Source: Dehalococcoidia bacterium (GTDB lineage: Bacteria > Chloroflexota > Dehalococcoidia > Lucifugimonadales > CAUZJF01). From it: 64,000 nucleotides of DNA. The notes beneath the pieces are model-generated. The model saw nothing but the letters and a program-made list of their open reading frames with translations. It made no database searches and had not been told where the DNA came from. Positions 15,107 to 53,877 of this stretch are shown here, in pieces. The stretch lies in contig CBDAOG010000008.1 in NCBI GenBank assembly GCA_965197985.1, forward strand, positions 212,069 to 276,068, given 5' to 3'. Every line of letters begins with the position of its first letter. Within the stretch, counting starts at the first letter, position 1. Position numbers and translations under genes: made by a program.

Positions 15107-15175
15107 TCGTCCTGTTCTCCTTCTGAACGGGCACCGGGGGCCGATTACATCTCCACAACGCAAGTGCCTGATGGC

Positions 15176-16735
15176 CTAGGTTTGGGCAGGGACTGGGCGT
15201 CGATACCGTCCAACACGGTCGAATAGCGCTTCCGGTAGCGGCCTGTAGACATCAATCACCTCGTCCTCGAGCTCGAACCGCTCTGTGAGGACGTCGATAG
15301 CGGCTTGAGCAATCAGTGACGCGCATGCGAGAACGGAGGCGGGCGGCGCGTTGTTGACAGGCGCAGAGCAACCGAGGTCGGGCTCCGCGAAATCAACCTC
15401 TGAGTCGCCTGGCGGAACAATCGGATAATTGGGAGATTCGGGCCGGGCAAGAATTGAGGAGTCAGTTTCCAAGGCCTTCCTCTGAACCCGTCCAATGAAT
15501 CCACCGCGGAACAGCGCGCCGGAGACCAGCGGCTTGCCCAGTCCCTCCGCAACCCGAGCGACGGGATGCACAAAGGCATCGTTGCCGGTAGCGTCGATAA
15601 CCACATCAACGTTCTCGATGAGCTGCGCTATCTCCTGTGATCCATATGGGTTGGTCGCGGGCGTTATGGATTCCACCTTGGTCCACGGTGCGTGATTCCT
15701 GATGGCAGCCTCCACGGCATTCACCTTGGGTCCCCCAACGTGATCATGGCCCGCAACGTGGCGTACGACGTTTCCAGGCGACAGGAGGTCGCTGTCGACG
15801 ATTCTCAGGGAATCGATGCCGCTCTCAGCGAGAGTCACTGCTACATGACCTCCCAACGCGCCGGCCCCAAAGAGGACAGCACTGCGTCCTTTGAGAACCT
15901 CTGCGTCGGGTCCAGCTCTGAGCCTGAGGGTCCGCTCGTCATTCGGTTCGGCTACTAGTGCTGCTGCTTCCACTTTGTCTCCTATTCCTTCGCAAGCCAT
16001 GACAAGCAGGTCAGTGCGCTCTTGCCGTTGCCACGCGAACAGGATGATGTCCACACCGCCTCTTACCTGGGGGCCTCTGGGCTCGCGGCGTTGCGAGAGA
16101 GCTCTCTCCAACCCCTTTCGCTGCGACCTGCTGAGATGTCGCGGTAGCTCGGATAGGTTGCGCGGCGGTGGAGCCTGAAGTTGCCCGACCCGAAACCAGA
16201 GACCACGTATCTCTCGCGGCCCAGTCACCTGTCCCGGTCGAATGCTTAGCAATTTCGGGTTCGTCAGGACTCCATTCAAGTCTCCCCAGCTACCGATGCT
16301 CGTGCGCAGTGACTCAAAGTCGAACGTCGCCATCAGCGGCACCTTGAGCTTGAAATTCAGGTAAGCGTCAAAAGGGAGATCGTCGTCCTGCCAGCCGCTC
16401 CTTGCGCGCCTGCACCAGTCCTCAACACGGCTGAAGAGACCGTCAACGGTCTCCCACTCAGCGCTCAGTTCGCTGTCCCGCCACAGACAGACGAACCCGT
16501 CTAGTGTCGAGTGGTTGGTGTCGAGCCCCTGCACGAAGAGCCTGGGCGGCCGGTAGGGCCACCCAGGGTCAAAGACGATCTCCATGCTGAGCGTATCGGT
16601 GAGCCCGTCGAACGCCGGGTGGATTGGGCCTCGCCACATGCGGCGTTCAGTGCCGGGAACCGGCTCAAACCCTGACGCAACTAGGTCGGCTCGGAATCCT
16701 TCCAGCGAGGCGATGTCGAAGGATTCCTGTTCCAT
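15176..16735 (-). CDS. cap2: CBASS Cap2-like E2/E1 fusion protein
   Basis: N-terminal UBC/E2-like motif TNHSTLDGFVCLW. C-terminal ThiF/E1 Rossmann VLFGAGALGGHVAVTLAESGIDSLRIVDSDLLSPGNVVRH. Start chosen at ATG 16735, 4 nt after the CD-NTase stop; the alternative is ATG 16762. The track start 16879 overlaps the upstream gene by 140 nt. Confidence 0.8.
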   Translation of the reverse strand: MEQESFDIASLEGFRADLVASGFEPVPGTERRMWRGPIHPAFDGLTDTLSMEIVFDPGWPYRPPRLFVQGLDTNHSTLDGFVCLWRDSELSAEWETVDGLFSRVEDWCRRARSGWQDDDLPFDAYLNFKLKVPLMATFDFESLRTSIGSWGDLNGVLTNPKLLSIRPGQVTGPREIRGLWFRVGQLQAPPPRNLSELPRHLSRSQRKGLERALSQRREPRGPQVRGGVDIILFAWQRQERTDLLVMACEGIGDKVEAAALVAEPNDERTLRLRAGPDAEVLKGRSAVLFGAGALGGHVAVTLAESGIDSLRIVDSDLLSPGNVVRHVAGHDHVGGPKVNAVEAAIRNHAPWTKVESITPATNPYGSQEIAQLIENVDVVIDATGNDAFVHPVARVAEGLGKPLVSGALFRGGFIGRVQRKALETDSSILARPESPNYPIVPPGDSEVDFAEPDLGCSAPVNNAPPASVLACASLIAQAAIDVLTERFELEDEVIDVYRPLPEALFDRVGRYRRPVPAQT

Positions 16736-16739
16736 TCGT

Positions 16740-17801
16740 CTACCCGAACCGGGGGGCCTCATTGCGCCGAGCCGTTGCGCCGGTCCCACTTGCCGCACCG
16801 ACTCCGGCTGCTGTGACAGTGCTGCCCACACTTCCTCCGCTCTTCGGAGGATAGGGCAAGACCGGATTGGCGCGGTCATTGCCGCCGAGGATTTTGCGCC
16901 ACTCAGTGGCAGCGTCGGTGTCGTTCATGGAAAGCGCCCCGCTTGCCGCAGCCGCCAGCTTCGCGAAAATGGCCGCGGCTTGTTCGACCTGCCCTGCAGA
17001 CAACGGTGGGTCGACAGGGGTGCCGAGGACAGGGTCAAGGAGAGGATTGACTCCCGCCTGGCGAAAACGGTCCGCAATGCACTGGAGCGTTCGGGCCAAG
17101 AGCACATCCCATTCGCTCCCTGCGACCACTCCGGATCGCCATGCGTCAAAAGTAACGAACTCCAGGTACAGACCTCCAGGTCGCTTGTCTCCCAGATGGG
17201 TCTCCCGAATCTGGCGCACTAGCTTGACGATAGGCTTGTAGGCGGGCCGATCGCCGACCTTCGAGGCCGATTGATTCAGGTCGGTAGAGAGGTCTCCGAA
17301 AAGCACGGCCCCGGTGGTGACCCAACGGCCCTCGCCCTCAACCCACCGGTTCTGGTCCTTGGTCGGGATTGCCCAAAGCTCACCGTGACCTACGGCCGGG
17401 ACCGCATCAACAGAAAAATCTCCTCCAGAAATGCGGTCACGGTCAGGAAACAGGACCTTGACGCTACGCGCCTGCTGCTGTGCCCGTCCGCCGCCCTGAC
17501 CATATTGTCCGTACTTGCGGACGATGACCCGCCAGACGGCGTCAAACACAGCCCTAGGCGCGGCCCTCGTATCCAGCTTCGTAAAGCGCAAGAAGACGTC
17601 CACATCCTTGCCTGGATAGATACCGACATCCCGGCCGTAGGAGCCGATCAGCAGCGGCTCGACGCCCCATTCCTTCAACTGCTCGTCCTGTTGCAGGAGC
17701 TCTCTGATCTCCGTGTGGGCGTCTATCGCGCGCTTCCGCTTCTGCCCATTGATTTCGATGTTGGTGAGCGCCTGCTCGAATTGGTTCCGCAAGTTAGGCA
17801 T
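16740..17801 (-). CDS. CBASS CD-NTase (cGAS/DncV-like, SMODS-type nucleotidyltransferase)
   Basis: LLIGSYGRDVGIYPGKDVDVFL (GS...DxD). Third acidic residue in DFSVDAVPA. KPIVKLVRQIR...GGLYLE. GGAGGG RBS. A Gly/Ala/Ser-rich C-terminal tail ends ...APRFG. Confidence 0.85.
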   Translation of the reverse strand: MPNLRNQFEQALTNIEINGQKRKRAIDAHTEIRELLQQDEQLKEWGVEPLLIGSYGRDVGIYPGKDVDVFLRFTKLDTRAAPRAVFDAVWRVIVRKYGQYGQGGGRAQQQARSVKVLFPDRDRISGGDFSVDAVPAVGHGELWAIPTKDQNRWVEGEGRWVTTGAVLFGDLSTDLNQSASKVGDRPAYKPIVKLVRQIRETHLGDKRPGGLYLEFVTFDAWRSGVVAGSEWDVLLARTLQCIADRFRQAGVNPLLDPVLGTPVDPPLSAGQVEQAAAIFAKLAAAASGALSMNDTDAATEWRKILGGNDRANPVLPYPPKSGGSVGSTVTAAGVGAASGTGATARRNEAPRFG

Positions 17802-17816
17802 TACATCCCTCCAGAT

Positions 17817-19157
17817 TCATCTTTTGGCCGAAGTTTCTTGACGCATCGGCAAAACTACTCTCTCAATGGGGCTCCCGCCCGCGCCGGAGCGCATGACCAA
17901 GCTGGGTAGATAGCGCGGCGCTACGAGACTGTCGCAGTCATCTGGACCATCTTCCCACTCGTACAGGCTCACGCGGATAGTATTCAGCGTGCGCCCTAGG
18001 AGCAGGGCAACTGTCCACGGGCAGCGAAGGAGCAAATGGACTTCGGACGTCTCCGAGCGTGACGCTGCCTGGCGTATGGCATGGGATGCCTCTGCGACTA
18101 TTGCGCCTGCGTCCTCGGGGAGCAGGTTCCCTTCAGTCACTGGCCGGATGTGGAACACGCTTGCGGGGCGGCCAAGACGGGCCTCAACGAGGCGGTCGAA
18201 CGCGGGGTCGCTCCGCGTCGGCAGCAGGTCCACGTAGACGACTGCCTCACCTATGGGTGCCTTGTGAGGGGAGCGATCCGTGACCTCCAACAATCGTGTC
18301 GAGGTTGCTGGAGCCGGAGCAGTATCGGGGGATGTCCACGTGTGGCCAGCGGTGTCTTCTACCTGCACATCTCCAACGAGGGTAGTGGGCAGCGCGGTGC
18401 CAAGAGCGAATGCAACCGATAGGTGCGCTCCTCCACTGACCCTTGCGCGCTTCGCACCAGCGATCTCCAAGAGGTGGGGGAGATCACCGAGAAAGAGCCG
18501 AAGGTCTTCCAATCCTTGCCGATGCGGGCGGCGATCACCATTCATGGCCGGCCGCAAGCGCACGACCAGGTCTCCGTACGGGCCAACGGCCGATGGAACG
18601 ATGCGAGTTTGCAGATTGATGTCGATGACTTGCCCGGTCGACTCGATACCCTCCCGTAGCGCCTCCATCCTTTGGCGACAGTGACTTCGCGCGATGTCCG
18701 CGATTTCCCTCGAAGTGAAGGCCGGGTCCTGGCGCAGTCCCTTTAGGATCGGCATAGTCTGGGACAGAAAACGGTCGGGAGCGGAATAGTCCAAGCCTCC
18801 GGCTTCGGCCCCGATGGTCGACGCGACCGACAGTGTGAACGCTCCTCCAGCCTCCAAGGCGAGCAGTTGCGGGAGTTCTGTGTCCCTGATGACGGTTGAT
18901 GATCCGACATCTGGGGTCACGACCAACACAGCGCCTGATAGCCCGGACTGCAATGCCTCTGCGAGCCGGCGCTCCGTGTCGCCCGGAGGAAGATCACTCC
19001 GATCGAGCCACACGGGAACGCCTGCGGCCCTCAGAGCCCACGCCAAGGCTGTTGCGAGCTCAGCGCCGTCGCTGTGTCGGTATGACAGGAAGACCGGTCC
19101 GCGAGGGGATACGCGGCTGGAGCCGTTTTTCATACTCCTTGGAGGCCCACTACTCAT
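17817..19157 (-). CDS. CBASS effector: TIR domain fused to SAVED-like sensor domain
   Basis: N-term VFLSYRHSDGAELATALAWALRAAGVPVWLD (TIR). C-term VHLLLRCPWTVALLLGRTLNTIRVSLYEW (typical SAVED terminal strand-helix pattern). GGAAGGA RBS. It is the first gene of the operon, 15 nt upstream of the CD-NTase. Confidence 0.75.
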   Translation of the reverse strand: MSSGPPRSMKNGSSRVSPRGPVFLSYRHSDGAELATALAWALRAAGVPVWLDRSDLPPGDTERRLAEALQSGLSGAVLVVTPDVGSSTVIRDTELPQLLALEAGGAFTLSVASTIGAEAGGLDYSAPDRFLSQTMPILKGLRQDPAFTSREIADIARSHCRQRMEALREGIESTGQVIDINLQTRIVPSAVGPYGDLVVRLRPAMNGDRRPHRQGLEDLRLFLGDLPHLLEIAGAKRARVSGGAHLSVAFALGTALPTTLVGDVQVEDTAGHTWTSPDTAPAPATSTRLLEVTDRSPHKAPIGEAVVYVDLLPTRSDPAFDRLVEARLGRPASVFHIRPVTEGNLLPEDAGAIVAEASHAIRQAASRSETSEVHLLLRCPWTVALLLGRTLNTIRVSLYEWEDGPDDCDSLVAPRYLPSLVMRSGAGGSPIERVVLPMRQETSAKR

Positions 19158-19260
19158 CTGGTCCTTCCCATAGAGCGCTACCGATCCTGCTACGTGTTGC
19201 TACAGCATTAGTATATGTCTTCTGAAGAACAAAGACAATGATCGCAATACTACTTCTACT

Positions 19261-20073
19261 ATGCCTGTTGGTATGCTAAACTGGGGGCACCATGATTGGG
19301 GGTTAGCCGCAATGGCCATTGAAATCGCCGGTTTCGCCCAGGCGCTAGCTCGGTGTCAGGCCTTTGAGTCTGTCGATGCTGGCGAGCTCGAGAATGTGCT
19401 CTCCAGTGGCCAGGACCCACTGGAGATGCTATTTGTTGAACCCTCGGCTGACGTCGCGCTCATTCGGTCGGGGGAGCCGTTTAGGTACCTGTACTTCGTT
19501 CAGCACGGCATGATCGTTCCTTGGCAGTTTCCCTACTCGGAGCTGCTCTCCCCCTTCCTGATAGGGGACCACGAGTTCATGATGGATGCGAAGCGCTGGG
19601 TGGCCTCTTATTCGGCCGCAACACAGACGACCGTGGTAGCCATCCCCGTCGCCACCATGAGGCTCGCCGTTGAAAGGCTGCCTCAGATACGCGCCAAGAT
19701 GAATCTTGTGTTGCTGAGGCGAATGGCGCGCTACTACTGGATCTCACTCGCTACCAATGGGAGCCCGGCGCCAAGGGTTGCTGCCGCTCTGATCTCCCGT
19801 CTTGCCCTAAGTGGCGAGGATCACGGTTGCGAGCGCGAGATCACCTTGCGGCAGCGAGACATCGTCCGGCTAACGGTCATGTCGCGCTCAGCCGTCGCCG
19901 GAGGCATTGCAAGACTCACCGACGCTGACCTTATTCGTACCGGGGATGAGAACAGCGAAAGATTCACAGGACTCGTCCATGTCCCGGACGTCGACCGACT
20001 AAAGGACTACGCGCTCGGCGAGGTTCGTGAAAGACAGGTCCGCCCACTGCTCCCGTCTACCACGGACAGATAG
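19261..20073 (+). CDS. Crp/Fnr-family-like regulator (cNMP-binding-like domain with degenerate phosphate-binding cassette + C-terminal HTH)
   Basis: Beta-barrel-like region ALIRSGEPFRYLYFVQHGMIV...LIGDHEFMMDAKRWVASYSAATQTTVVAIP. HTH ITLRQRDIVRLTVMSRSAVAGGIARLTDADLI. Divergent from the CBASS operon across a ~100-bp AT-rich gap. Start uncertain (19261, 19273 or 19312). Confidence 0.65.
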   Translation: MPVGMLNWGHHDWGLAAMAIEIAGFAQALARCQAFESVDAGELENVLSSGQDPLEMLFVEPSADVALIRSGEPFRYLYFVQHGMIVPWQFPYSELLSPFLIGDHEFMMDAKRWVASYSAATQTTVVAIPVATMRLAVERLPQIRAKMNLVLLRRMARYYWISLATNGSPAPRVAAALISRLALSGEDHGCEREITLRQRDIVRLTVMSRSAVAGGIARLTDADLIRTGDENSERFTGLVHVPDVDRLKDYALGEVRERQVRPLLPSTTDR

Positions 20074-20242
20074 TTCGCCGAAAAAGGGTTGCCTTCATTG
20101 TGAGAGTAGATCAGACCGTGCCCTCCCAATTCCCACGACGCGAAGTCTGGTCAGATTCCGTCAAACGCCCATTGGCTTGATCTGCGGTCGCTAAGAGACC
20201 CGCAGGGGTGAATTAACAGAGGAGATGGTGTAAGAACATAAG

Positions 20243-23200
20243 ATGAGCGAGAACGCATTGAGAGAGGCTCACGAAGTCGATCGGGAACAGGCACACCGAA
20301 ACGATGCCCGGCGCATCCTCCAAAGAGTTGCTCTGGCTTTGGAGAGCCAGCTATCCTCCGGGGTTCGTTGGCCCTTTGAGCTCCTCCAGAACGCCCACGA
20401 TTTCGGCGCGCGGGAGGGAGAGGACCTCGTCGAGGTCGAGTTTTGCCAGAACGACGAGAATCTGGTTGTTTCCCACAACGGAAGGATATTCAGCATTCCG
20501 GAACTCAAGGCGCTGTTGTCCGGCGGATCGAGTAAGGAGTTCGATGGAATGGAAACGACCGGCCGGTTCGGCACAGGGTTCTTGGTGACCCATGCCATAT
20601 CGTCGCGGGTTGATGTGGATGGGATTCTGCAGAGGGCGGATGGGCAGCTCGAGACCTTCCGGATTGAGCTGAACCGGCCACCGGATGAATCCCTAATTCT
20701 GAAGAACATTGAACTCACGGATGAAGCGTTTGGAGCCGCGCGGCCCACCAATGGGCCAATGGATGTTCCAACCGCATCTTTCACTTATCACGGCGCCAAC
20801 TCCGAGGTGGTTCGGGTGGGTTTGGACCGCTTGGAGCAGACTATTCCCTACCTGTACGGGACTTGCGACAATCTGGGGCAGGTACGAATCCGGCGTCCAG
20901 AAAGGACGGTTGTTTTCAGGCGAGAGTCGCCTCCCGGCACTGGAATCAAGGACATTGACGGGTTCTTTCTCAAGGAGGCCATCGTTACGGCCTCGGAGGG
21001 CGTTGCCACCAGACAATTCGCAGCCGTCAGCATCCTTGCCAAGGCAGCAACAGGCCTGGACGGCGCCGCAGGTGACGAGCATGCTTCTGCAGGATTGCTG
21101 TTGATCTTGAAGAAAGATGACGGCCAAATGAGCAGCATCGTATTCCCCGAACCGGGTTTCCCCAGGATCTTCGTCCAATTCCCAATCAACGAAACGGGAG
21201 CTTTGCCTTTCAACATCGTACTTGAAAGCAAGTTCAATCCAAAGCAGGAGCGGGACGGCATTACAATGAACCTTGACGACCGGAGACTCCTGAAGGCAGC
21301 GCTGTCAGCGTTTCCTTCCTTGATGGAGTATGCCGTGAATTCCGGCTGGGAGAATGCGCATAGACTCGCGTTTGTCGACGTGCCGCTTCAGGCCCTCGGG
21401 GGGGAAACCGCAGCGTCGGAGGAACTGGCCTGGTGGAAAGAAGTAATAGGAGAAGTCGCCGCGGCAACGGCCTCGAAGCCAATCATTTCAACCAGTAAAG
21501 GGTACCTCCCGGCAATCTCCGGTGATGATGAGTTCGTCTCGTTTCCGGTGCCGGCGGTCGGTGAGACGGAACGATTCCCTGTCGACTACGACAGCTTGTA
21601 TGACCTGACGGAACGGGTTGCCAATATTCGCCTGCCTGACAAGGCAGTTGCGGGGGAGTGGGAGGCGATATCAGGCCGATGGGCTGGCATCGGATTACCC
21701 GTGAACCGGGTAGGATTGAGGGAACTGGTGGAATGGGTAAGAGCGGGATGCCGAGCAGTTTCGGATCTCCCCATTGCTGGAGACCCTTTCGAGTGGCTGG
21801 CTGACCTGCTGCTGCTCATCTCCAGCCTTCCTGACGAAGTAAACAAGAGACAGTTTCTTAACGGGATGATGCCGGACCAGCATTCGCAATTGCGAAACGC
21901 GGGCGACCTTCGTTTCGATGGCGGGATCTCAGAAGACGTGAAGGACATCGCCGATACGGCACGCCTTGACCTTCGATCCGGCCTGCTGCACACCGGTTTG
22001 GTTGCGGTCCTCGGCTTGCCAGGGTACGAACCGGCGAAAGCTCTTGCAGAAGAAACCCTGGGCCGGCCGAATTCTGAATCCGAGGCGATTGAAGCCGTAC
22101 TCGACAGGTTGGATGAGCGGTTGCCCGATGACAGCCCAGTATCATCGTCCGATGGGCCCTCCGCCCTGCGTACATCGGCCCGGCTGGTTGTGTTCCTGGC
22201 GCCCGAGGAGGGAAACGCCGGGCTCCTTCGAAGGTGTCCTCTCCTGACGTCCGAGGACAAGGTCGTCCGCCTGGCAAACAACCTGCAGATTCTCGCGCCA
22301 GTATCGCTCTGGCACGATTCGTCCAGGCCCTACAAGGACCTCTACACCCAGAACCGCGTGCTGTCCGACCGATACACGGACGATGCGGAATTGAACGCGG
22401 CCCTGGCCCCCTTGATCGAGCGGTCGCTGACGATTCCCGGGCCGTTCTTCAGGGGCCGGCGGTCTTCGCCGGTGGACGGTCCGCTGCTCAAAGAGATCGC
22501 CCCTGACTGTCCGCTGGAGAGGGTCCCCTATGGATCGCACGAGTTCGGGCAGATTGCGTTCCTAGCCAACGAGTTGGTCCCCCGCTGCGGTAACGACGAG
22601 AAGCTTGCTGTACTGCTGCTAAATTTCGTGGTCAATGTGGCCGCCAAGGAAGACCCGGAGTGGCACAGTGCCAGTTCCGTCACTCTCAGGCCGCGCGACG
22701 GCGAGGAAGTGCAATTTCAGACATTCAATTCGACATGGCCCTTTGAGCTTAAGGTACGGTCCTGGATTCCAGTTGTCGACGAAGAAGGGAAGATAATCGG
22801 CCAGGTCCCAGCCAACGAAGCCAATCTGAGGCCTCTGCTCGGAGAAGAGTGGTTGCAGGACAACCCACCAGGTATAGACCTCTTGCACCGGGCGTTCGGA
22901 TTTCGGCAGCTCACGCTGATGCTGGAAAGCATGGACAAGGGTGTTGAGATGGACTTGGTTCAACTGCTTCAGGACCCCAACCTCGTAAAGTCCGTAGCGG
23001 CAAACCTGGATCTCATCAAAGCGACGGTTTCAAATCCGGAGGTCGCCCGAATCCTCTCCGAAGCGGAAGCCGGTGAAATCCAGGAAATCCAGGACGAGCT
23101 TGACAAGAAGAAACGCCAGAACGAGATAAGGAACCGGAACAGCAACTTTGGGCACGCGGTCCAGGAAGCGGTCAAAAAAGCGGTGGAAGCCCTGGGCCTG

Positions 23201-23629
23201 AGGCTGGAGCTTGTGGACTGGGGGTACGACTATGAAGTCTTTCCGGATGGTGCGTCGTTCACCTTCGAGGTTGGGAGCTATTTCCTGGAGGTAAAGGCCA
23301 CCACCACCCGTGACGTCCGGTTGACCCCAACGCAAGCCAACAAGGCCTGGCACGAGCCGGATCGGTTCGTTCTGTGCGTCGTCGACCTTTTCGGCCAGCA
23401 GATCAAAGAGGCCTGGGAACCGGCGGACATAGTGCCCTGTGCCAAATTCGTAACCCGGATCGGAGGCGAATTCGAGGAGATCCACAAGGGTGTCACCAGC
23501 TTCTCCGACACCGCCAAGCCCGTCCACCTTCGCAATGAAGAAATGCTCCGTTACGGAGTTTCCGTGGACCTGTGGAGCCAGGGAGTTTCCATCACTGAAT
23601 GGGTCCGTTCATTACCGGGTTCACCATGA
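20243..23629 (+). CDS. 1128-aa GHKL-type ATPase (sacsin/NO VEIN-like N-terminus) with C-terminal PD-(D/E)xK DUF3883-like nuclease domain
   Basis: Bergerat-fold N-box WPFELLQNAHDFG. G-box ETTGRFGTGFLVTH. C-term WGYDYEVFPDG...SYFLEVKATTTRDVRLTPTQANKAWHEPDRFVLCVVDL. 170 bp downstream of the Crp-like gene on the same strand. Confidence 0.8.
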   Translation: MSENALREAHEVDREQAHRNDARRILQRVALALESQLSSGVRWPFELLQNAHDFGAREGEDLVEVEFCQNDENLVVSHNGRIFSIPELKALLSGGSSKEFDGMETTGRFGTGFLVTHAISSRVDVDGILQRADGQLETFRIELNRPPDESLILKNIELTDEAFGAARPTNGPMDVPTASFTYHGANSEVVRVGLDRLEQTIPYLYGTCDNLGQVRIRRPERTVVFRRESPPGTGIKDIDGFFLKEAIVTASEGVATRQFAAVSILAKAATGLDGAAGDEHASAGLLLILKKDDGQMSSIVFPEPGFPRIFVQFPINETGALPFNIVLESKFNPKQERDGITMNLDDRRLLKAALSAFPSLMEYAVNSGWENAHRLAFVDVPLQALGGETAASEELAWWKEVIGEVAAATASKPIISTSKGYLPAISGDDEFVSFPVPAVGETERFPVDYDSLYDLTERVANIRLPDKAVAGEWEAISGRWAGIGLPVNRVGLRELVEWVRAGCRAVSDLPIAGDPFEWLADLLLLISSLPDEVNKRQFLNGMMPDQHSQLRNAGDLRFDGGISEDVKDIADTARLDLRSGLLHTGLVAVLGLPGYEPAKALAEETLGRPNSESEAIEAVLDRLDERLPDDSPVSSSDGPSALRTSARLVVFLAPEEGNAGLLRRCPLLTSEDKVVRLANNLQILAPVSLWHDSSRPYKDLYTQNRVLSDRYTDDAELNAALAPLIERSLTIPGPFFRGRRSSPVDGPLLKEIAPDCPLERVPYGSHEFGQIAFLANELVPRCGNDEKLAVLLLNFVVNVAAKEDPEWHSASSVTLRPRDGEEVQFQTFNSTWPFELKVRSWIPVVDEEGKIIGQVPANEANLRPLLGEEWLQDNPPGIDLLHRAFGFRQLTLMLESMDKGVEMDLVQLLQDPNLVKSVAANLDLIKATVSNPEVARILSEAEAGEIQEIQDELDKKKRQNEIRNRNSNFGHAVQEAVKKAVEALGLRLELVDWGYDYEVFPDGASFTFEVGSYFLEVKATTTRDVRLTPTQANKAWHEPDRFVLCVVDLFGQQIKEAWEPADIVPCAKFVTRIGGEFEEIHKGVTSFSDTAKPVHLRNEEMLRYGVSVDLWSQGVSITEWVRSLPGSP

Positions 23630-23736
23630 ACCGGGGCCACTTCTTGGCACCGGGGTTTCACGGACTGGTGGAGTTGAGAGACTGCTTGGGATCACCCGAG
23701 CGCCGAGCCCTATGGGAATCCTCACAGGCCACCCAG

Positions 23737-24022
23737 CCACATCTCGAAGATGGTTCTGTCTATCGTCAAAGTAGGCCCACCTGAAGAGAGTCGAACCACC
23801 CCGTATGCCATCGCGGTGTTAAGAATCACAGGTCCCCCAGCCAAATCTCAATGAGGGCACCACCTCCCATCCCTCCGCCCTCGAGGTGTCACACTACAGG
23901 AATTGAGAGGCCTTGGTGCGTCGAAAGGCTACCGAGCCACATCTCGAAGATAGTGGTATCTACCGTATGCGTTGGTGGGCCTAAGTTGACGGTAGGCAGA
24001 ACCATCTTCGAGATGTGGATGG
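23737..24022. repeat. Three copies of a ~45-nt motif (CCACATCTCGAAGATGGTTCTGCCTACCGTCAACTTAGGCCCACC); two form a long imperfect hairpin
   Basis: Copies lie at 23737-23783 (+), 23937-23985 (+, diverged) and 23972-24022 (-). A fourth copy lies at 54946-54992 (+). Confidence 0.75.
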
Positions 24023-24110
24023 GGCTGTAGTCTATCGCGCCACTGTCTGGGCGACGCCATGGGGCCATGCTCTCCAGGCTAGTTTATTTGGCTGACCGGA
24101 CCGTTCAACC

Positions 24111-25289
24111 CTAGCGGCCCGGCGACAGCAGCTCGTTGGCGTACTTCGGAACGAACGTCTGCCTTGTGACCTCAACCTCCGAAATGCCGCCAGTTCGATA
24201 GGTAGCACATTCGGAGGAGCCGGCCTCGCAGGCATATAGCACAACATTGCCGCCGCGAGCCTTGCGCAGTGAGTATGGCTCCACCCTTTGCACGTCCCCC
24301 TCGTAATCCACGTCGACACACAGCCTGTTGGCAGCAGCAAAGCGAATGCGCTCCAGAGTGGAGGCGTTCATGCCCAGGTCCTGGCTCGTTGAGGATGGAC
24401 TCACGACTTCTTCGTCCGGGCCAATGGGCATTGGTGTAGGAGATGAAGAGGCTATGCTCCCGTGGAGCCATGTGAAGAACTCCGGAATGGCCGACCAAAA
24501 GGACTCGATTGGAGGCACCGCAGGCAGCTGGTGTCCGAGCATGACTTCCCAGTCGCTCTCCATCTCTTCCCTGAATGGCTGGAGAGAAGCCGGATTGGGA
24601 ACCTGTATGCCCTTGAACTCACACTTCTCGCGTAGGACATGGAGGATGGCAGCCGCATCTGGGCGAAGGTCTTCCCTTCGAAAGAGGCTGATCACGTCGT
24701 AGAGATCTCTCGGACGTGCGCGCTCCCCCAGGGCGCGTGTCTTCTCGCCCACGAGCTCCGCAAGAGGATATGTCCGGGCGGACATGCCGTCTTCCGGGTA
24801 GTCGGAGTAGAGATGGGAGACGGCTCGTTCAACAGGCCGATGCACAATCCTCTCATCGGCGGTCAGATCGAGCTTGACCCTGGGAAGGCTGCCTCTCGGT
24901 TGCATTGGGCCGCGGTAGTAGATGCGGCCTTCAATCTGGAGATTCCCTCTAGGATTGCGGTACGCCCTGAAACGAGGACTCTGCGTAGAGATGTCTATTC
25001 CGCTATGGTCGTACATCCAATCCGCAATGCCTTGGAAGACGTCCGCGAGGATTCTTCCATCCAATAGACTGGCGTCTTCTACCGTGAAGTCCAGGTCCTC
25101 CGAGAGCCGGTAGGTCTCGACGAAGCACTTCTTGAGGCAGGTTCCGCCCTTGAACACCCAAGCTGGGGCGAGTACGGGGTGGGCAAAGATTCCGGCCAGC
25201 ATCCAGCCTAGGACGTAGTCCTTCTCTATCATGTCGACTCGAAGATCCCGCTCGCCGGCAATGGTGAGCACCTCGCTCCGGTCAATCAT
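24111..25289 (-). CDS. abiEii: AbiEii/AbiGii-family nucleotidyltransferase toxin with ~90-aa C-terminal WYL-like extension
   Basis: IEKDYVLGWMLAGI, FKGGTCLKKCF, YRLSEDLDFTV, VKLDLT are typical DUF1814/AbiEii blocks. The extension reads ERIRFAAANRLCVDVDYEGDVQRVEPYSLRKARGGNVVLYACE...YRTGGISEVEVTRQTF. Overlaps abiEi by 8 nt. Confidence 0.85.
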   Translation of the reverse strand: MIDRSEVLTIAGERDLRVDMIEKDYVLGWMLAGIFAHPVLAPAWVFKGGTCLKKCFVETYRLSEDLDFTVEDASLLDGRILADVFQGIADWMYDHSGIDISTQSPRFRAYRNPRGNLQIEGRIYYRGPMQPRGSLPRVKLDLTADERIVHRPVERAVSHLYSDYPEDGMSARTYPLAELVGEKTRALGERARPRDLYDVISLFRREDLRPDAAAILHVLREKCEFKGIQVPNPASLQPFREEMESDWEVMLGHQLPAVPPIESFWSAIPEFFTWLHGSIASSSPTPMPIGPDEEVVSPSSTSQDLGMNASTLERIRFAAANRLCVDVDYEGDVQRVEPYSLRKARGGNVVLYACEAGSSECATYRTGGISEVEVTRQTFVPKYANELLSPGR

Positions 25290-41330: not shown

Positions 41331-41719
41331 AGCACCGACCCGCTGATCTCGTACTGCATGGTGTAGTAGATATATACTTACCCAGAGGCAGAAATCCACC
41401 CATTAGATATTGCTTGCACCATTGCATGTTTGCATTTCTGGAGCTCTTCGACCGCCTATTCGCCTTTCGGCTAACCGCCTATTCCGTTCAACTGAGCGTG
41501 TCCAGCGATCTCCCTTCGATCGCCTTGATGCTCGGTATCATTGTGGTGGGTCTCGTCGTGGCCCGGGCCACGGTGCGCCTACACGATACCCCTACAAGGA
41601 GAGCTGCATGTCCAACCGCGACGGAATCCTAGACTCGCGGTGGTGTTTGCGGTACCTTCGAGAGCGTTGAAAAACCCGCGTGGTGGCCCGGGCCACATCC
41701 CCTGCAAAGGAGGGGCTAC

Positions 41720-41902
41720 ATGTCCAACCGCGACGGAATCCTAGACTCGCATCCTTCGGAGCGCGTCAAAATGCCGCCGGAGCTGGCGGCCTTCGACCGA
41801 TGGGACGCCGATCCGAACGACCTGGCGAAGTGGGAGGCGGCTATGGCGGCCTTGGCCCCGGCCGCCGGAGCCGACAATTCCAACGCCACCGTCAATCTCT
41901 AA
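41720..41902 (+). CDS. Small acidic hypothetical protein (60 aa), arm-borne
   Basis: Strong SD AAAGGAGGGG 5 nt before the ATG. MSNRDGILDSHPSERVKMPPELAAFDRWDADPNDLAKWEAAMAALAPAAGADNSNATVNL. The mirror copy 53272..53454 differs at 2 residues. Confidence 0.55.
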   Translation: MSNRDGILDSHPSERVKMPPELAAFDRWDADPNDLAKWEAAMAALAPAAGADNSNATVNL

Positions 41903-42544
41903 GCCAGCAAGTCGAAGCTCGTGTTCCAAGCGTAGGTAGGCCCTCCCCCGTCTCCACCACGAACACTAGCTGCCAAACGTTTTCGAGTGACCCTGGTCTG
42001 ACCCGGCCGCGCAACGCTGGATTGAGGCTGTGCTTAGACTTCCCAGCGGCAGCATGCTGCGTGCGTAATGCCGTCTGGCTCCGTAATGTAGTACACGGTA
42101 AGGATGCTTCCGTCGGCCAGCTGCGTCGACACGGGATATCCGAGGTCGCCTTCTGGCCTCGACCGTGTCTCCAGTGGAGGGTCCCCGTGCCGAACTCGTC
42201 GCGCCAGACCTCCAGGCGGCGGCGGAGCTTGTCGGGGGTGTCAAGCAGGCCGACGGCCTCGCCGAAGGTCAGGTGGTCGCCCCAGGAGACGCTCGCGATG
42301 TTTCGGCCGTGGCCCAGCGTCATCTTTGGAGATCTCCTGCTGCCTGGTCCATGACATCACCTGAAGCGCCATCCAATGAGACGCCCAGAAAGGGAGTCCT
42401 TTTGGTACGGCTGATATTACGGCTCGTGGTAGCTACGACGCAAGACGGCCCCCTTTTGGAGCATAGGCACTATAGCAGGTGCGGAACAGCAGGCTGGGGC
42501 GGTGCTTCGCTATGGCGGGTGGAACGGACAGGACCGAGCCGTAG

Positions 42545-44155
42545 CTATGAGAAGGCGGCCTCGAATACGCGCTCGGTACGTTCCTGTTGTTTCCGGTCAG
42601 GACCAGGCGTAAGAGATACGCCGGAGCCGGCACGGGTGGTTGCCAGATGGAAGACCGGCCTGAACGGAGCTTTGGGCTTGATGGCGACGACCGAACGGGC
42701 GTCTTTCGTGTCAACGTAAACGGCGTCCAGCATGGCAAGCAACAGCTTCCGACGCTCTTCCATGTTGGCACCAGCCCATAGCTCAGGCAGCCTCTCTATC
42801 AGCTTCCCCGCCTCTGCGGCAGCGGCAGCCTTTGGCACAACGAGGGACTCGAGCTCCATCTCCAGGTTCCGCTTCTGCCGCTTATACTCCTGGTCATCAT
42901 AAACTCCATCGACATAGGTCTTGGCGAGTCTCCGAAGCCTCTCCTGGACCTTTCGCCGCTTGGCTTGGACTACTTCGACCTCGTCCCTGGCGCTGATTAT
43001 CGAGAGGAGCTGCTCTTGCCATGCAGGTCCCAACTCGATGGCCTCGACGATCCTTCCGACCTGCTCATCAGCCAGGCGGCACGGTATCGAGCCATCGTGA
43101 GCTGGGCATTGGGTGTTACTGCGAGACTCCCTGTGCTCACGGTAGTACCTTCTTCCGCTTTTATAGGTCTGTGCCCACATCGGCATCTTGCAGTAGGCGC
43201 AACGGATGATCCCTTTCAGAAGATAGTCACGCTCAGGGTGAGGGCTCAGGGTCGTTGATCTGCCGCTGTTGTGCCGCATCTTGTCCTGGACCAGATCGAA
43301 GAGCTCCTGGCCGACGACTGGCTCGTGGGCTCCCGGTCGGAGTTGTTTCCTGTGCCTGACAAGACCCGAGTAGAAAGCGTTATGGAGGATGCCCCTCACT
43401 GAGGCAGTGGTAAATAGCTTCGGACCGGGCGAGAGCTTGCCATCAGCGCCTGCCAGCTGCTTGGTGTTGCGAGTCCGTAAGCCGCTCGCGTTCAGCCACG
43501 CGGCGAGCTGGCTTAGTGTGGTCGATCCCGTCGAGTACCGTTTGAACATCTCCTGGACCGCGGCAACCTCGGACGCAATAAGATGAACGCCCCCGGAATG
43601 CTCTTTTGGGCATCTGCGCCTGCGCTCTCCGTCCTGGCTCATCCAGCAGGATTCGTATCCAAACGGGATGCCGCCGGTGTGTCTGCCCTCATTGGCCCTC
43701 TCATCCAGACCCTTGCTTACGTGAGTGCCAAGCATGTTGGAGAAGAACTGGGCGAAGGACCCCAGAAGTTGAGTCGTCAACATCCCCTCAGGGGTCGAGT
43801 AGTCGATGTTCTCGGTGATGGAGACGAGAGCGACGTTGTGCATGCCCAGGTTGGCCAGCGACTCCAGGGTGACCCTGAGGTTGCGAGACCATCGGTCAAG
43901 GGTATGGACTACGACGATATCGAATTGATCCCTCCTGGCGTCCTCCATCAGTTGGCGGAAGATAGGGCGCTTCTTCACCGACTCTGAGTGGGCCGACTGG
44001 CCCTCTTCCCGATAGACCCTGACGGCCGCCCAGCCTCGGCTCTCACACAGCTGATTGAAGAGCCGCTCCTGGGCGTTCAGAGAGTGCCCGTCCACCTGTG
44101 AGATAGACGATACCCTGAGGTAGGCCACAGCTCTCTGGGAGTTCGCGTCGCTCAT
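42545..44155 (-). CDS. Large serine recombinase (536 aa)
   Basis: Resolvase catalytic N-term AVAYLRVSSISQ. Recombinase domain. Zn-ribbon CAYCKMPMW...CPAHDGSIPC. C-terminal coiled coil. Confidence 0.9.
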   Translation of the reverse strand: MSDANSQRAVAYLRVSSISQVDGHSLNAQERLFNQLCESRGWAAVRVYREEGQSAHSESVKKRPIFRQLMEDARRDQFDIVVVHTLDRWSRNLRVTLESLANLGMHNVALVSITENIDYSTPEGMLTTQLLGSFAQFFSNMLGTHVSKGLDERANEGRHTGGIPFGYESCWMSQDGERRRRCPKEHSGGVHLIASEVAAVQEMFKRYSTGSTTLSQLAAWLNASGLRTRNTKQLAGADGKLSPGPKLFTTASVRGILHNAFYSGLVRHRKQLRPGAHEPVVGQELFDLVQDKMRHNSGRSTTLSPHPERDYLLKGIIRCAYCKMPMWAQTYKSGRRYYREHRESRSNTQCPAHDGSIPCRLADEQVGRIVEAIELGPAWQEQLLSIISARDEVEVVQAKRRKVQERLRRLAKTYVDGVYDDQEYKRQKRNLEMELESLVVPKAAAAAEAGKLIERLPELWAGANMEERRKLLLAMLDAVYVDTKDARSVVAIKPKAPFRPVFHLATTRAGSGVSLTPGPDRKQQERTERVFEAAFS

Positions 44156-51018: not shown

Positions 51019-52629
51019 ATGAGCGACGCGAACTCCCAGAGAGCTGTGGCCTACCTCAGGGTATCGTCTATCTCACAGGTGGACGGGCACTCTCTGAACG
51101 CCCAGGAGCGGCTCTTCAATCAGCTGTGTGAGAGCCGAGGCTGGGCGGCCGTCAGGGTCTATCGGGAAGAGGGCCAGTCGGCCCACTCAGAGTCGGTGAA
51201 GAAGCGCCCTATCTTCCGCCAACTGATGGAGGACGCCAGGAGGGATCAATTCGATATCGTCGTAGTCCATACCCTTGACCGATGGTCTCGCAACCTCAGG
51301 GTCACCCTGGAGTCGCTGGCCAACCTGGGCATGCACAACGTCGCTCTCGTCTCCATCACCGAGAACATCGACTACTCGACCCCTGAGGGGATGTTGACGA
51401 CTCAACTTCTGGGGTCCTTCGCCCAGTTCTTCTCCAACATGCTTGGCACTCACGTAAGCAAGGGTCTGGATGAGAGGGCCAATGAGGGCAGACACACCGG
51501 CGGCATCCCGTTTGGATACGAATCCTGCTGGATGAGCCAGGACGGAGAGCGCAGGCGCAGATGCCCAAAAGAGCATTCCGGGGGCGTTCATCTTATTGCG
51601 TCCGAGGTTGCCGCGGTCCAGGAGATGTTCAAACGGTACTCGACGGGATCGACCACACTAAGCCAGCTCGCCGCGTGGCTGAACGCGAGCGGCTTACGGA
51701 CTCGCAACACCAAGCAGCTGGCAGGCGCTGATGGCAAGCTCTCGCCCGGTCCGAAGCTATTTACCACTGCCTCAGTGAGGGGCATCCTCCATAACGCTTT
51801 CTACTCGGGTCTTGTCAGGCACAGGAAACAACTCCGACCGGGAGCCCACGAGCCAGTCGTCGGCCAGGAGCTCTTCGATCTGGTCCAGGACAAGATGCGG
51901 CACAACAGCGGCAGATCAACGACCCTGAGCCCTCACCCTGAGCGTGACTATCTTCTGAAAGGGATCATCCGTTGCGCCTACTGCAAGATGCCGATGTGGG
52001 CACAGACCTATAAAAGCGGAAGAAGGTACTACCGTGAGCACAGGGAGTCTCGCAGTAACACCCAATGCCCAGCTCACGATGGCTCGATACCGTGCCGCCT
52101 GGCTGATGAGCAGGTCGGAAGGATCGTCGAGGCCATCGAGTTGGGACCTGCATGGCAAGAGCAGCTCCTCTCGATAATCAGCGCCAGGGACGAGGTCGAA
52201 GTAGTCCAAGCCAAGCGGCGAAAGGTCCAGGAGAGGCTTCGGAGACTCGCCAAGACCTATGTCGATGGAGTTTATGATGACCAGGAGTATAAGCGGCAGA
52301 AGCGGAACCTGGAGATGGAGCTCGAGTCCCTCGTTGTGCCAAAGGCTGCCGCTGCCGCAGAGGCGGGGAAGCTGATAGAGAGGCTGCCTGAGCTATGGGC
52401 TGGAGCCAACATGGAAGAGCGTCGGAAGCTGTTGCTTGCCATGCTGGACGCCGTTTACGTTGACACGAAAGACGCCCGTTCGGTCGTCGCCATCAAGCCC
52501 AAAGCTCCGTTCAGGCCGGTCTTCCATCTGGCAACCACACGTGCCGGCTCCGGCGTATCTCTTACGCCTGGTCCTGACCGGAAACAACAGGAACGTACCG
52601 AGCGCGTGTTCGAGGCCGCCTTCTCATAG
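51019..52629 (+). CDS. Large serine recombinase (536 aa), identical in protein sequence to 42545..44155
   Basis: The protein string is the same as the left-arm copy. Only two nucleotide differences were noticed, both synonymous (ACC/ACA Thr, GGT/GGA Gly). Confidence 0.9.
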   Translation: MSDANSQRAVAYLRVSSISQVDGHSLNAQERLFNQLCESRGWAAVRVYREEGQSAHSESVKKRPIFRQLMEDARRDQFDIVVVHTLDRWSRNLRVTLESLANLGMHNVALVSITENIDYSTPEGMLTTQLLGSFAQFFSNMLGTHVSKGLDERANEGRHTGGIPFGYESCWMSQDGERRRRCPKEHSGGVHLIASEVAAVQEMFKRYSTGSTTLSQLAAWLNASGLRTRNTKQLAGADGKLSPGPKLFTTASVRGILHNAFYSGLVRHRKQLRPGAHEPVVGQELFDLVQDKMRHNSGRSTTLSPHPERDYLLKGIIRCAYCKMPMWAQTYKSGRRYYREHRESRSNTQCPAHDGSIPCRLADEQVGRIVEAIELGPAWQEQLLSIISARDEVEVVQAKRRKVQERLRRLAKTYVDGVYDDQEYKRQKRNLEMELESLVVPKAAAAAEAGKLIERLPELWAGANMEERRKLLLAMLDAVYVDTKDARSVVAIKPKAPFRPVFHLATTRAGSGVSLTPGPDRKQQERTERVFEAAFS

Positions 52630-53271
52630 CTGCGGCTCGGTCCTGTCCGTTCCACCCGCCATAGCGAAGCACCGCCCCAGCCTGCTGTTCCGCACCTGCT
52701 ATAGTACCTATGCTCCAAAAGGGGGCCGTCTTGCGTCGTAGCTACCACGAGCCGTAATATCAGCCGTACCAAAAGGACTCCCTTTCTGGGCGTCTCATTG
52801 GATGGCGCTTCAGGTGATGTCATGGACCAGGCAGCAGGAGATCTCCAAAGATGACGCTGGGCCACGGCCGAAACATCGCGAGCGTCTCCTGGGGCGACCA
52901 CCTGACCTTCGGCGAGGCCGTCGGCCTGCTTGACACCCCCGACAAGCTCCGCCGCCGCCTGGAGGTCTGGCGCGACGAGTTCGGCACGGGGACCCTCCAC
53001 TGGAGACACGGTCGAGGCCAGAAGGCGACCTCGGATATCCCGTGTCGACGCAGCTGGCCGACGGAAGCATCCTTACCGTGTACTACATTACGGAGCCAGA
53101 CGGCATTACGCACGCAGCATGCTGCCGCTGGGAAGTCTAAGCACAGCCTCGATCCAGCGTTGCGCGGCCGGGTCAGACCAGGGTCACTCGAAAACGTTTG
53201 GCAGCTAGTGTTCGTGGTGGAGACGGGGGAGGGCCTACCTACACTTGGAACACGAGCTTCGACTTGCTGGC

Positions 53272-53454
53272 TTAGAGATTGACGGTGGCGTTGGAATTGT
53301 CGGCTCCGGCGGCCGGGGCCAAGGCCGCCATAGCCGCCTCCCACTTCGCCAGGTTGTTCGGATCGGCGTCCCATCGGTCGAAGGCCGCCAGCTCCGGCGG
53401 CATTTTGACGCGCTCCGAAGGATGCGAGTCTAGGATTTCGTCGCGGTTGGACAT
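53272..53454 (-). CDS. Small acidic hypothetical protein (60 aa), right-arm copy
   Basis: MSNRDEILDSHPSERVKMPPELAAFDRWDADPNNLAKWEAAMAALAPAAGADNSNATVNL. Same SD as the left-arm copy. Confidence 0.55.
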   Translation of the reverse strand: MSNRDEILDSHPSERVKMPPELAAFDRWDADPNNLAKWEAAMAALAPAAGADNSNATVNL

Positions 53455-53877
53455 GTAGCCCCTCCTTTGCAGGGGATGTGGCCCGGGCCACCACGCGGGT
53501 TTTTCAACGCTCTCGAAGGTACCGCAAACACCACCGCGAGTCTAGGATTCCGTCGCGGTTGGACATGCAACTCTCCTTGTAGGGGTATCGTGTAGGCGCA
53601 CCGTGGCCCGGGCCACGACGAGACCCACCACAATGATACCGAGCATCAAGGCGATCGAAGGGAGATCGCTGGACACGCTCAGTTGAACGGAATAGGCGGT
53701 TAGCCGAAAGGCGAATAGGCGGTCGAAGAGCTCCAGAAATGCAAACATGCAATGGTGCAAGCAATATGTAATGGGTGGATTTCTGCCTCTGGGGTGAGTA
53801 TATATCTACTACACCATGCAGTACGAGATCAGCGGGTCGGTGCTGGCAGGGCAGATCACAACCACGACCTGGGCGGG

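Follow-up and report, generated by a model that had tools for sequence, protein, structure and literature searches.

Gene layout of the locus

We analysed a 64,000-nt stretch of DNA (hereafter the window) from contig CBDAOG010000008.1 (assembly GCA_965197985.1) of a Dehalococcoidia bacterium, and all positions are given in window numbering. The locus under study holds a type II operon of the cyclic oligonucleotide-based anti-phage signalling system (CBASS) on the minus strand and, diverging from it on the plus strand, two open reading frames (ORFs) at 19261..20073 (270 aa) and 20243..23629 (1128 aa). The shorter encodes a protein with a predicted Crp/Fnr fold, called the regulator below, and the longer a protein matching TmtA of the phage-defence system Tiamat. 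The evidence presented here makes it probable that these are two separate units, a regulator cassette that belongs with CBASS and an independent Tiamat, lying side by side in a Chloroflexota (Dehalococcoidia-like) defence island.

In an alignment of the small protein with 69 homologs, every homolog starts at Met18 of the longest ORF, so the regulator gene most likely starts at 19312 and encodes 253 aa. Measured from this start, the gap to the CBASS operon is 154 bp (vs ~100 bp from the longest ORF), and the intergenic region is AT-rich (GC 47 % vs ~60 % around it). The CBASS operon is assigned to type II by its CD-NTase, its Cap2 (E1-E2) and its SAVED-fused effector; Pfam and PADLOC annotation found no Cap3/JAB gene in it. 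The Cap2 ORF, when taken from its first ATG, runs 140 nt into the CD-NTase gene; its homologs align only from residue ~42-52, and the true start probably lies later. The spacer between the regulator gene and tmtA (20074-20242) contains no predicted promoter, terminator, operator-like site or Rfam family, and the folding of its RNA is unremarkable (z = 0.26). The coordinates of all features are collected in Table 1.

Table 1. Coordinates of the features at the locus and the basis on which each was assigned
Feature	Position	Strand	Basis
Type II CBASS operon, presumed target of regulation	15176..19157	minus	Pfam and PADLOC matches
Cap2 (E1-E2)	15176..16879	minus	PADLOC E1-E2, 2.7e-168
CD-NTase	16740..17801	minus	PADLOC Cyclase, 1.6e-100
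TIR-SAVED effector	17817..19157	minus	PADLOC Effector TIR-SAVED, 9.4e-136
Portable cassette: both promoters, candidate operator, regulator gene	19195..20077	plus	blastn homology limits, groups A/B
Predicted sigma-70-type promoter into the CBASS operon	19210..19238	minus	promoter scan; conservation in 19 cassettes
Candidate operator TGTCTTCTGAAGAACA	19216..19231	.	conserved palindrome inside the CBASS promoter spacer
Probable promoter of the regulator gene	19254..19282	plus	conserved blocks cTTTnCA and TGCTAAnAT
Crp/Fnr-fold regulator gene	19312..20073 (longest ORF from 19261)	plus	start conservation, weak Pfam matches, AF2/Foldseek
Regulator-TmtA spacer, 169 bp	20074..20242	plus	outside the window, shared by L079 alone (from 20087 on)
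TmtA gene cassette shared with L080	20220..23635	plus	blastn, 83 % identity over that stretch only
TmtA (Tiamat), 1128 aa	20243..23629	plus	PADLOC PDLC03967, catalytic motifs, AF2

Predicted fold and pocket of the regulator

An AlphaFold2 (AF2) model of the regulator, built on 69 homologs, reached a predicted local distance difference test score (pLDDT) of 89.4 and a predicted TM-score (pTM) of 0.80. In Foldseek the model matched full-length Crp/Fnr regulators with probability 1.0 over 210-243 columns, at ~20 % identity and with TM-scores up to 0.58-0.64; the matches include 4ev0, 3r6s, 3i54, 7pzb and FNR (T. thermophilus CAP, GlxR, M. tuberculosis CRP, Clr, FNR). The architecture is that of a cyclic nucleoside monophosphate (cNMP)-type beta-barrel followed by a long dimerisation C-helix and a C-terminal winged helix-turn-helix (wHTH). 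No family match was returned by an NCBIfam scan, and a PADLOC scan gave no family at E <= 0.01, every Cap model included. We place the protein in the Crp/Fnr superfamily on the strength of the predicted fold together with weak profile matches.

The phosphate-binding cassette is degenerate: aligned without indel from the conserved Gly onward, the regulator has Asp in place of CRP Glu72, an invariant Trp in place of Arg82 and Val in place of Ser83. In place of the canonical cyclic AMP (cAMP) cassette G-E...R-[ST]-A it thus has G-D...W-V-A, in which Trp and Val are invariant or nearly so. Canonical cAMP sensing was rejected because the Arg and Ser of the cassette are replaced. Two further candidates were discarded, namely an FNR-like Fe-S sensor, given the single conserved Cys, and an anti-CBASS sponge, given the complete helix-turn-helix (HTH) and dimer helix.

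A profile search of 1.84 billion representatives returned 100 relatives at E <= 1e-3 (40 at E <= 1e-30), many being fragmentary; none were present in PLSDB plasmids or INPHARED phages. As judged from these searches, the regulator clade is small, isolated and almost purely Chloroflexota. A first-pass annotation, made from the letters of the window, had already described the two ORFs and their AT-rich divergent region, a cNMP-type barrel with an HTH in the small protein, and a non-canonical phosphate-binding cassette. All of these stand, with the gap corrected to 154 bp by the start at 19312, the barrel and HTH recovered at the level of fold (AF2/Foldseek) and sub-threshold in Pfam, and the cassette residues now identified as Asp/Trp/Val. 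Its expectation that the protein does not cluster with ordinary cAMP or FNR regulators likewise agrees with the small number of relatives retrieved.

Genomic company of the regulator gene

For a census of the regulator gene, one genome per species was scanned, which gave 78 loci; ORFs were called, their neighbours clustered and the cluster representatives annotated. Nearly all loci lie in metagenome-assembled genomes (MAGs) of Dehalococcoidia/Chloroflexota, with two in Latescibacterota, and several genomes hold 3-6 copies. The loci fall into groups according to their neighbours. In group A (62-90 % identity to the window regulator) the divergent operon is TIR-SAVED/CD-NTase/Cap2, as in the window; in group B (76-86 %) it is nuclease-SAVED/CD-NTase/Cap2/Cap3, and in group C (57-59 %) CD-NTase/Cap2/Cap3/TIR-SAVED. 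In group D the operon on the divergent side encodes an E1-E2-JAB fusion together with a patatin protein, and no CD-NTase was recognised in it. Single loci have ThiF-type E1 or multiubiquitin proteins upstream, and the upstream genes of group E are of unknown kind. Finally, group F comprises ~27 multi-copy loci (53-57 % identity) with the regulator between a conjugation module (relaxase, type IV coupling protein (T4CP), VirB4 and pilin) and variable cargo, which may be type I and IIG restriction-modification (RM) systems, SspA/DndA with PbeA/PbeC, HmaB/HmaC, or a PLD-helicase.

The group F loci L036-L077 (~10000-20500 each) carry a conserved conjugation module of Dehalococcoidia integrative and conjugative elements (ICEs), in up to 4-6 copies per genome. 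The module contains a Replic_Relax relaxase, a TrwB-type coupling protein, a VirB4/TraC ATPase, a PrgI-like protein and a type IV secretion system (T4SS) pilin, and large serine recombinases are found nearby; the defence-cargo hotspot of these loci adjoins the regulator gene. In one of them (L041, 8173-9354, plus strand), a CapP-like/RmrA-like peptidase (PADLOC capP 2.9e-18) lies directly upstream of the regulator, beside HmaB and HmaC, and two types of controller may therefore share this hotspot.

The nearest relatives of the window regulator invariably diverge from type II CBASS or another operon containing E1. An E1-domain protein is encoded in the divergent operon of 29 of the 50 non-ICE (non-F) loci and nowhere else in any locus, at least four CBASS/E1 operon architectures are represented, and the divergent gap measures ~105-155 bp in groups A and B. 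In a neighbour-joining tree of the regulators (no bootstrap), group A is interleaved with B and C with D, and the closest relative of the window regulator is a group B locus, L005. The interleaving indicates that the regulator has been re-paired with different operons repeatedly, which speaks against simple hitch-hiking.

When sampling was reversed and began from CD-NTase homologs, the longest contigs were equally long in 20 of the 120 CD-NTase clusters and a Crp-like cluster. Two loci reached from this side (L166 and L167) have the regulator and the promoter block, and in four others (L162-165) the regulator is absent along with the 5' part of TIR-SAVED. In the latter (~5050-5980) the TIR-SAVED gene starts at residue 138 or is further fragmented, which suggests a joint deletion of regulator, promoter and TIR domain followed by decay. 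The regulator is facultative, as CapW is.

A portable cassette with back-to-back promoters and a candidate operator

The intergenic region was aligned over 19 cassettes, drawn from groups A and B plus three further loci. The alignment brings out a sigma-70-type promoter reading into the CBASS operon, with its -35 element TTGTCT at 19238-19233, a 17-nt spacer and its -10 element TATACT at 19215-19210 in the window; the consensus among relatives is TTGACT-N17-TATTCT. Its information content is 1.4-1.6 bits vs 0.5-0.9 in the flanks, and a promoter scan called it independently (1 site vs 0.6 expected). Back to back with it lies the probable promoter of the regulator gene, composed of a -35 element TTCTAC (19254-19259), a 17-nt spacer and an extended -10 element TGC-TAAACT (19274-19282). 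The assignment of this second promoter is based on conservation, the simple promoter scan having made no call there.

A palindrome with the consensus TGTCT-N6-AGACA and the core TGT-N10-ACA lies entirely within the spacer of the CBASS promoter. In the alignment the TGT core is invariant (2.0 bits) and the ACA core reaches 1.7 bits, compared with 0.94 for the central six bases and 0.46-0.86 for the flanks, and TGT-N10-ACA is retained at this position in 17 of the 19 cassettes. Perfect TGTCT-N6-AGACA sites occur ten times in 161 loci, eight of them at the operator position of a cassette. Elsewhere in the window, including upstream of TmtA, no operator-like site was found at <=1 mismatch, apart from a chance-level match inside Cap2. 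TGT-N10-ACA is the core geometry of Crp/Fnr sites, as known from CRP-DNA structures. In the recognition helix of the regulator family, R-S-A-V-A, the Arg that recognises the G of TGT in CRP is retained and Glu181 is replaced, a change that would fit a TGTCT rather than a TGTGA half-site. Geometry and conservation point to this palindrome as a putative binding site of the regulator.

The limits of the conserved block are sharp. In blastn comparisons, group B loci, whose CBASS operons begin with nuclease-SAVED, match the window only from 19195-19210 to 20054-20077, that is, from ~15-20 nt past the CBASS -10 element to the stop codon of the regulator. Loci whose CBASS operons begin with different genes therefore have this cassette in common, and a portable regulator-plus-promoter cassette of the kind has not yet been described for CBASS. 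The candidate operator fills the spacer of a near-consensus promoter, the position of a repressor, so we propose the regulator as a repressor of the CBASS operon, which is its most likely role. We infer both this action and what the regulator senses from sequence.

Several observations weigh against this reading. The regulator scores below the Pfam cut-offs (cNMP_binding 17.7 vs 27.5 bits, HTH_Crp_2 16.8 vs 27), as does its MarR_2 match. The conservation of the palindrome comes from homologous and hence non-independent sequences, and in the window both the operator (GAACA for AGACA) and the -35 element (TTGTCT for TTGACT) are slightly degenerate. Groups C to E keep the regulator promoter and its ribosome-binding site, but no common palindrome was found at the equivalent place, so we confine the operator assignment to the A/B clade; the upstream regions of group F have no block in common with A/B. 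One CBASS relative with another gene order (L168) lacks such a regulator. Finally, the ~27 ICE paralogs have the same pocket and recognition helix and no CBASS, and the family may be one of general island/ICE regulators rather than CBASS-specific.

An alternative built on the last point holds that the regulator belongs to the backbone of ICEs and defence islands, where it acts on transfer genes or adjoining cargo, CBASS being merely one frequent cargo of the hotspot. The placement of the group F paralogs between conjugation module and cargo is as this explanation would have it, relaxase and serine-recombinase genes occur also in the group A loci L001, L015, L040 and L044, and the pocket and recognition helix are invariant in all groups. 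However, every intact locus of the window's clade has its palindrome-bearing promoter directed into the CBASS/E1 operon, and the downstream side of the regulator there is variable and has no conjugation module. Nor does the window hold conjugation genes, tblastn with the relaxase, T4CP, VirB4 and pilin of related loci having found serine recombinases only. We consider the backbone explanation rather unlikely; it overlaps with repression of CBASS in that both invoke regulation of adjacent cargo, and differs mainly in the generality of the role.

The large protein as a copy of Tiamat

Tiamat (TmtA) was reportedly named as a single-gene anti-phage system by Millman et al. in 2022. The 1128-aa protein matches the PADLOC profile PDLC03967 (TmtA) with E 1.8e-91 and 306 bits, its residues 7-597 aligning to positions 6-575 of the 1063 in the profile. 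Its C-terminal half alone matches the same profile with E 2e-27 (residues 890-1123 on positions 827-1055), the central ~250 profile residues (~575-827) remain unaligned, and seven more TmtA models match the GHKL core. By these profile matches, the protein is a copy of this named single-gene phage-defence system.

It begins with an Hsp90/sacsin-type GHKL ATPase and middle domain (~aa 1-600), continues with a helical, coiled-coil-containing region and ends in a PD-(D/E)xK domain (DUF3883/NOV_C). NCBIfam P_loop_sacsin, a sacsin-type ATP-binding family, matches the N-terminus above its cut-off (3.4e-16), and Pfam NOV_C/DUF3883 scores 19.2 bits, just below the cut-off of 22.1. In the AF2 model (pLDDT 82.8), the N-terminal and middle domains of Hsp90/HtpG/TRAP1 are matched over 550-750 columns. 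Conservation was assessed in 72 homologs with 41-86 % identity: the Bergerat residues N50, D53, H78-x-G80 and G107-x-F-G-x-G-F are invariant, E46 is conserved in >= 90 %, and no residue of the PD-(D/E)xK triad D996, E1016 and K1018 varies. Searching PDB sequences with the TmtA profile returned no match, and a search of plasmids (PLSDB) gave weak partial matches only.

TmtA presumably acts as an ATP-gated nuclease on nucleic acid. In YenY4I, an endonuclease that has been characterised, DUF3883 forms the catalytic PD-(D/E)XK domain (PMC6765204), and Tiamat is listed among single-gene PD-(D/E)XK systems (bioRxiv 10.1101/2024.10.26.620412). It is frequent in island hotspots (PMC12629846) and its mechanism is uncharacterised (PMC12926258).

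The regulator and TmtA as neighbours

TmtA was detected in none of the 78 regulator loci (tblastn with the window proteins). A census from the side of TmtA covered 83 loci, made up of three close homologs and 80 distant full-length metagenome relatives, and revealed no recurrent neighbour; the largest neighbour cluster, a methyltransferase, counts 5 members from 4 loci. Only one of the 83 loci, L079, has a Crp-like or CBASS gene beside its TmtA homolog. This locus has the same GmrSD_C-Cap2-CD-NTase-TIR-SAVED block and so is of the window's own island lineage. L169 is of that lineage too: it is 99.5 % identical to the window, with a frameshift in its TmtA.

Recombination breakpoints also part the two genes. 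Regulator-side homology ends at 20054-20077, at the stop codon, and TmtA-side homology with L080 starts at 20220, 23 nt before the ATG. L080 has no Crp-like gene or CBASS; its TmtA homolog is accompanied by a type IIG RM gene, an integrase and a PLD-helicase. These breakpoints argue that TmtA is an independent, gene-tight insertion, and on this evidence its adjacency to the regulator is an accident of island assembly. Since no terminator is predicted in the spacer, co-transcription of TmtA by read-through from the regulator promoter is possible, and would be incidental.

These results bear directly on the idea of a two-gene defence module in which the Crp-like gene supplies a dedicated regulator and the 1128-aa gene an ATP-dependent nuclease. 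The genes do share a strand, only 169 bp and no predicted terminator or separate promoter lie between them, and their adjacency is seen again in L079 and L169. Yet these two loci, the only recurrences and near-identical copies of one island, stem from the island lineage of the window, the Crp-like gene is missing from 82 of the 83 TmtA loci, TmtA has no recurrent partner and is absent from the regulator loci, homology breaks at 20077 and 20220 between the two genes, and Tiamat is by definition a single-gene system. The two censuses largely refute such a module, and we give it next to no credence.

A second idea links the two genes through CBASS: the regulator would sense the CD-NTase product and either switch on TmtA as a second arm or feed back on CBASS expression. 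Its cNMP-type barrel with a conserved, non-cAMP pocket, its tight linkage to CD-NTase operons and the existence of Crp-family cyclic-dinucleotide binders, such as Xanthomonas CLP (PDB 3iwz), which is among its fold matches, all lend themselves to this. However, TmtA is absent from all other CBASS-Crp loci and is not preceded by an operator-like site, which disfavours the second-arm variant. The pocket motif PFLIG.HEF.M.A.RW.ASYSA and the recognition helix are kept in all groups, including ICE-only paralogs, so the signal is unlikely to be the product of a particular CD-NTase; paralogs with the identical motif adjoin RM, Ssp or Hma cargo, or group D operons, none of these with a recognised CD-NTase. 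In addition, CBASS signalling quickly kills or arrests the cell and leaves little room for transcriptional feedback. Sensing of a CD-NTase product in either form is, in our estimation, highly improbable.

The first-pass annotation had read the large protein as a GHKL ATPase joined to a PD-(D/E)xK nuclease, a domain reading now backed by catalytic residues that are invariant or nearly so in 72 homologs. It had erred in taking this GHKL+DUF3883 combination for one outside the named defence systems, the protein being Tiamat/TmtA by its two matches to PDLC03967, and the undescribed two-gene module that it offered as a candidate was not borne out, TmtA being a named system and the genes not a unit. 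From its proposal of a stand-alone nuclease gene with its own regulator, the stand-alone ATP-dependent nuclease-type gene survives and the pairing with the regulator does not (0 of 78 and 1 of 83 loci). Its coupling to CBASS holds for the regulator gene, which is tied to the CBASS operon, and fails for TmtA as a CD-NTase-driven second arm, since no operator-like site lies upstream of TmtA, TmtA is absent from all other CBASS-Crp loci and the putative ligand pocket is conserved to the same degree in paralogs away from CBASS.

Proposed mechanism and its meaning

In the favoured model of two separate units, the regulator would be a dimeric Crp/Fnr-fold transcription factor that travels with two back-to-back promoters, one driving its own gene and the other the divergent type II CBASS operon, with the operator between the -35 and -10 elements of the latter. 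A dimer on the operator would occlude RNA polymerase and so keep the CBASS operon low, and a signal at the non-canonical cNMP-like domain would release the repression of this abortive-infection operon. Elsewhere this part is taken by CapW/BrxR, CapH with CapP, or CapK with CapS, to whose folds that of the regulator is unrelated. Tiamat would have entered the island downstream of the regulator gene as a gene-tight cassette, and its transcription may come from read-through.

The silencing and release of abortive-infection systems such as CBASS are only partly understood, and in all three families of adjacent controllers known so far, DNA damage is sensed as single-stranded DNA (ssDNA). If the model is right, a Crp/Fnr-fold controller with a ligand pocket points to a different input, for instance a metabolite or nucleotide, and the idea of adjacent-pathway controllers extends to a deeply branching, mostly uncultured phylum. 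The cassette, with its sharp recombination breakpoints, is a ready-made part for reporter assays and a practical marker by which defence cargo can be traced on mobile elements of Chloroflexota. The copy of Tiamat is ordinary; what it contributes is a further subfamily, from Chloroflexota, together with a confident model of Hsp90 type and the set of catalytic residues found invariant.

A more far-reaching proposal, to which we attach only slight probability, is that the regulator represents a fourth, structurally unrelated class of dedicated immune-operon controllers. It would consist of a portable regulator and bidirectional promoter that mark the cargo hotspots of Chloroflexota islands and ICEs. 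Type II CBASS and ubiquitin-like operons would be gated by a small molecule, perhaps an alarmone or a nucleotide second messenger, that occupies the remodelled cyclic-nucleotide pocket, in contrast to CapW, CapP and CapK, which sense ssDNA.

Other elements of the island

At least four defence loads lie within 17 kb: CBASS, Tiamat, AbiE and a methyltransferase/nuclease pair. Directly after Cap2, a GmrSD_C (DUF1524-type HNH) and Excalibur protein is encoded at 14015-15163 on the minus strand; it is syntenic in L079, L162, L164 and L165, and partly in L002, and may be an accessory gene of this CBASS lineage, not a separate system. Farther out on this flank, a second DUF3883/NOV_C protein, a 466-aa nuclease with an Mrr_cat domain (9570-10970, plus strand), adjoins an 889-aa N6/N4 methyltransferase (11072-13741, minus strand), and the two, which lie across the CBASS operon from TmtA, may constitute an RM pair. 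In L001 the methyltransferase recurs (78 % identity), 2 kb downstream of the Crp-like gene. Higher-GC, probably core sequence on the left of the window encodes a hybrid GAF-PAS histidine kinase/response regulator with OmpR-type output (6236-8644, plus strand).

On the other side, an intact AbiEii/AbiEi toxin-antitoxin pair (24111-26076, minus strand; PADLOC 3e-158 and 9e-110) is situated downstream of TmtA. Between the TmtA stop codon and AbiEii (23726-24023), a ~45-nt element, AGGCCACCCAGCCACATCTCGAAGATGGTTCTGTCTATCGT, occurs in three direct copies and one inverted copy (4 matches vs 0.02 expected), and a fifth copy at 54948-54967 lies beside a truncated serine-recombinase ORF. Related pieces of 50-60 nt are present at the distal ends of the CBASS operons in L003, L005, L008 and L013, and the repeat may be a cassette-boundary element or one resembling miniature inverted-repeat transposable elements or repetitive extragenic palindromes (MITE/REP-like).

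The region beyond the AbiE pair is rich in insertion sequences. It holds three copies of a DDE_Tnp_1_4 transposase of ~440 aa, at 27710-29029 (plus strand), 29414-30733 and 36499-37824 (both minus strand), as well as an inverted duplication of 41680-44155 at 51019-53494. Each arm of the duplication encodes a 536-aa serine recombinase (42545..44155, minus; 51019..52629, plus), the two having identical tblastn statistics, next to a 224-aa ORF (41680..42354, plus; 52820..53494, minus). About 7 kb, including IstB-like and GmrSD_N ORFs, are enclosed between the arms, and the whole could be an invertible or composite element. Toward the right end of the window, an ORF resembling a Caudovirus prohead protease (57084-58241, minus strand) hints at a prophage remnant, and no tRNA was found in the window.

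Comparison with known systems

Three kinds of controller, CapW/BrxR, CapH with CapP, and CapK with CapS, are encoded beside the promoters of CBASS, Bub (E1/E2/JAB), BREX and other immune operons, and all respond to ssDNA (PMC13373217; see also PMC9122588 and bioRxiv 10.1101/2022.04.27.489752). The regulator resembles them as a small gene at the promoter of an immune operon, found with several types of operon, in particular CBASS and E1/E2/JAB, in having a palindromic site that overlaps the operon promoter, and in its facultative presence. In contrast, its Crp/Fnr fold (barrel and wHTH) has no homology to the WYL-wHTH, the HTH plus peptidase or the STAS-wHTH plus kinase families, and its predicted sensor is a pocket of small-molecule type instead of a WYL domain, a peptidase or a kinase partner, so that its input is probably not ssDNA. 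It differs further in being nearly confined to Chloroflexota MAGs, and its regulatory role is a predicted one. The regulator is thus Cap-like by position and belongs to none of the three Cap families; likewise it has a predicted Crp/Fnr fold but is not a cAMP-type CRP. Among the papers searched, none joins CBASS with Crp/Fnr or cNMP-binding regulators in this sense.

With the canonical Crp/Fnr proteins (E. coli CRP, C. glutamicum GlxR, M. tuberculosis CRP, S. meliloti Clr and FNR) the regulator shares the fold, the order of domains, the Arg that opens the recognition helix and a TGT-N10-ACA candidate site. It departs from them in its low identity (~20 %) and Pfam scores below threshold, in the replacement of Arg82/Ser83 by Trp/Val and in the lack of an FNR-type Cys cluster. 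Its candidate site, moreover, lies in the promoter spacer, a repressor position, and not at -41.5 or -61.5, and its gene resides on islands and ICEs beside defence genes, which is not suggestive of a global regulator.

The large protein is like Tiamat in its profile matches at both ends, its N-terminal GHKL/sacsin-type ATPase and C-terminal PD-(D/E)xK domain, and its occurrence as a solitary gene among variable, often defence-related neighbours. It differs as a Chloroflexota-lineage subfamily that was assigned through the PADLOC profile, with the central part of the profile unaligned and phage protection as a predicted property. Its Hsp90-like GHKL N-terminal and middle domains and its C-terminal NOV_C/DUF3883 domain relate it to the eukaryotic sacsin and NO VEIN and to Hsp90/HtpG; unlike these relatives it is a bacterial defence-island protein with 10-12 % identity to Hsp90, for which no chaperone role is implied.

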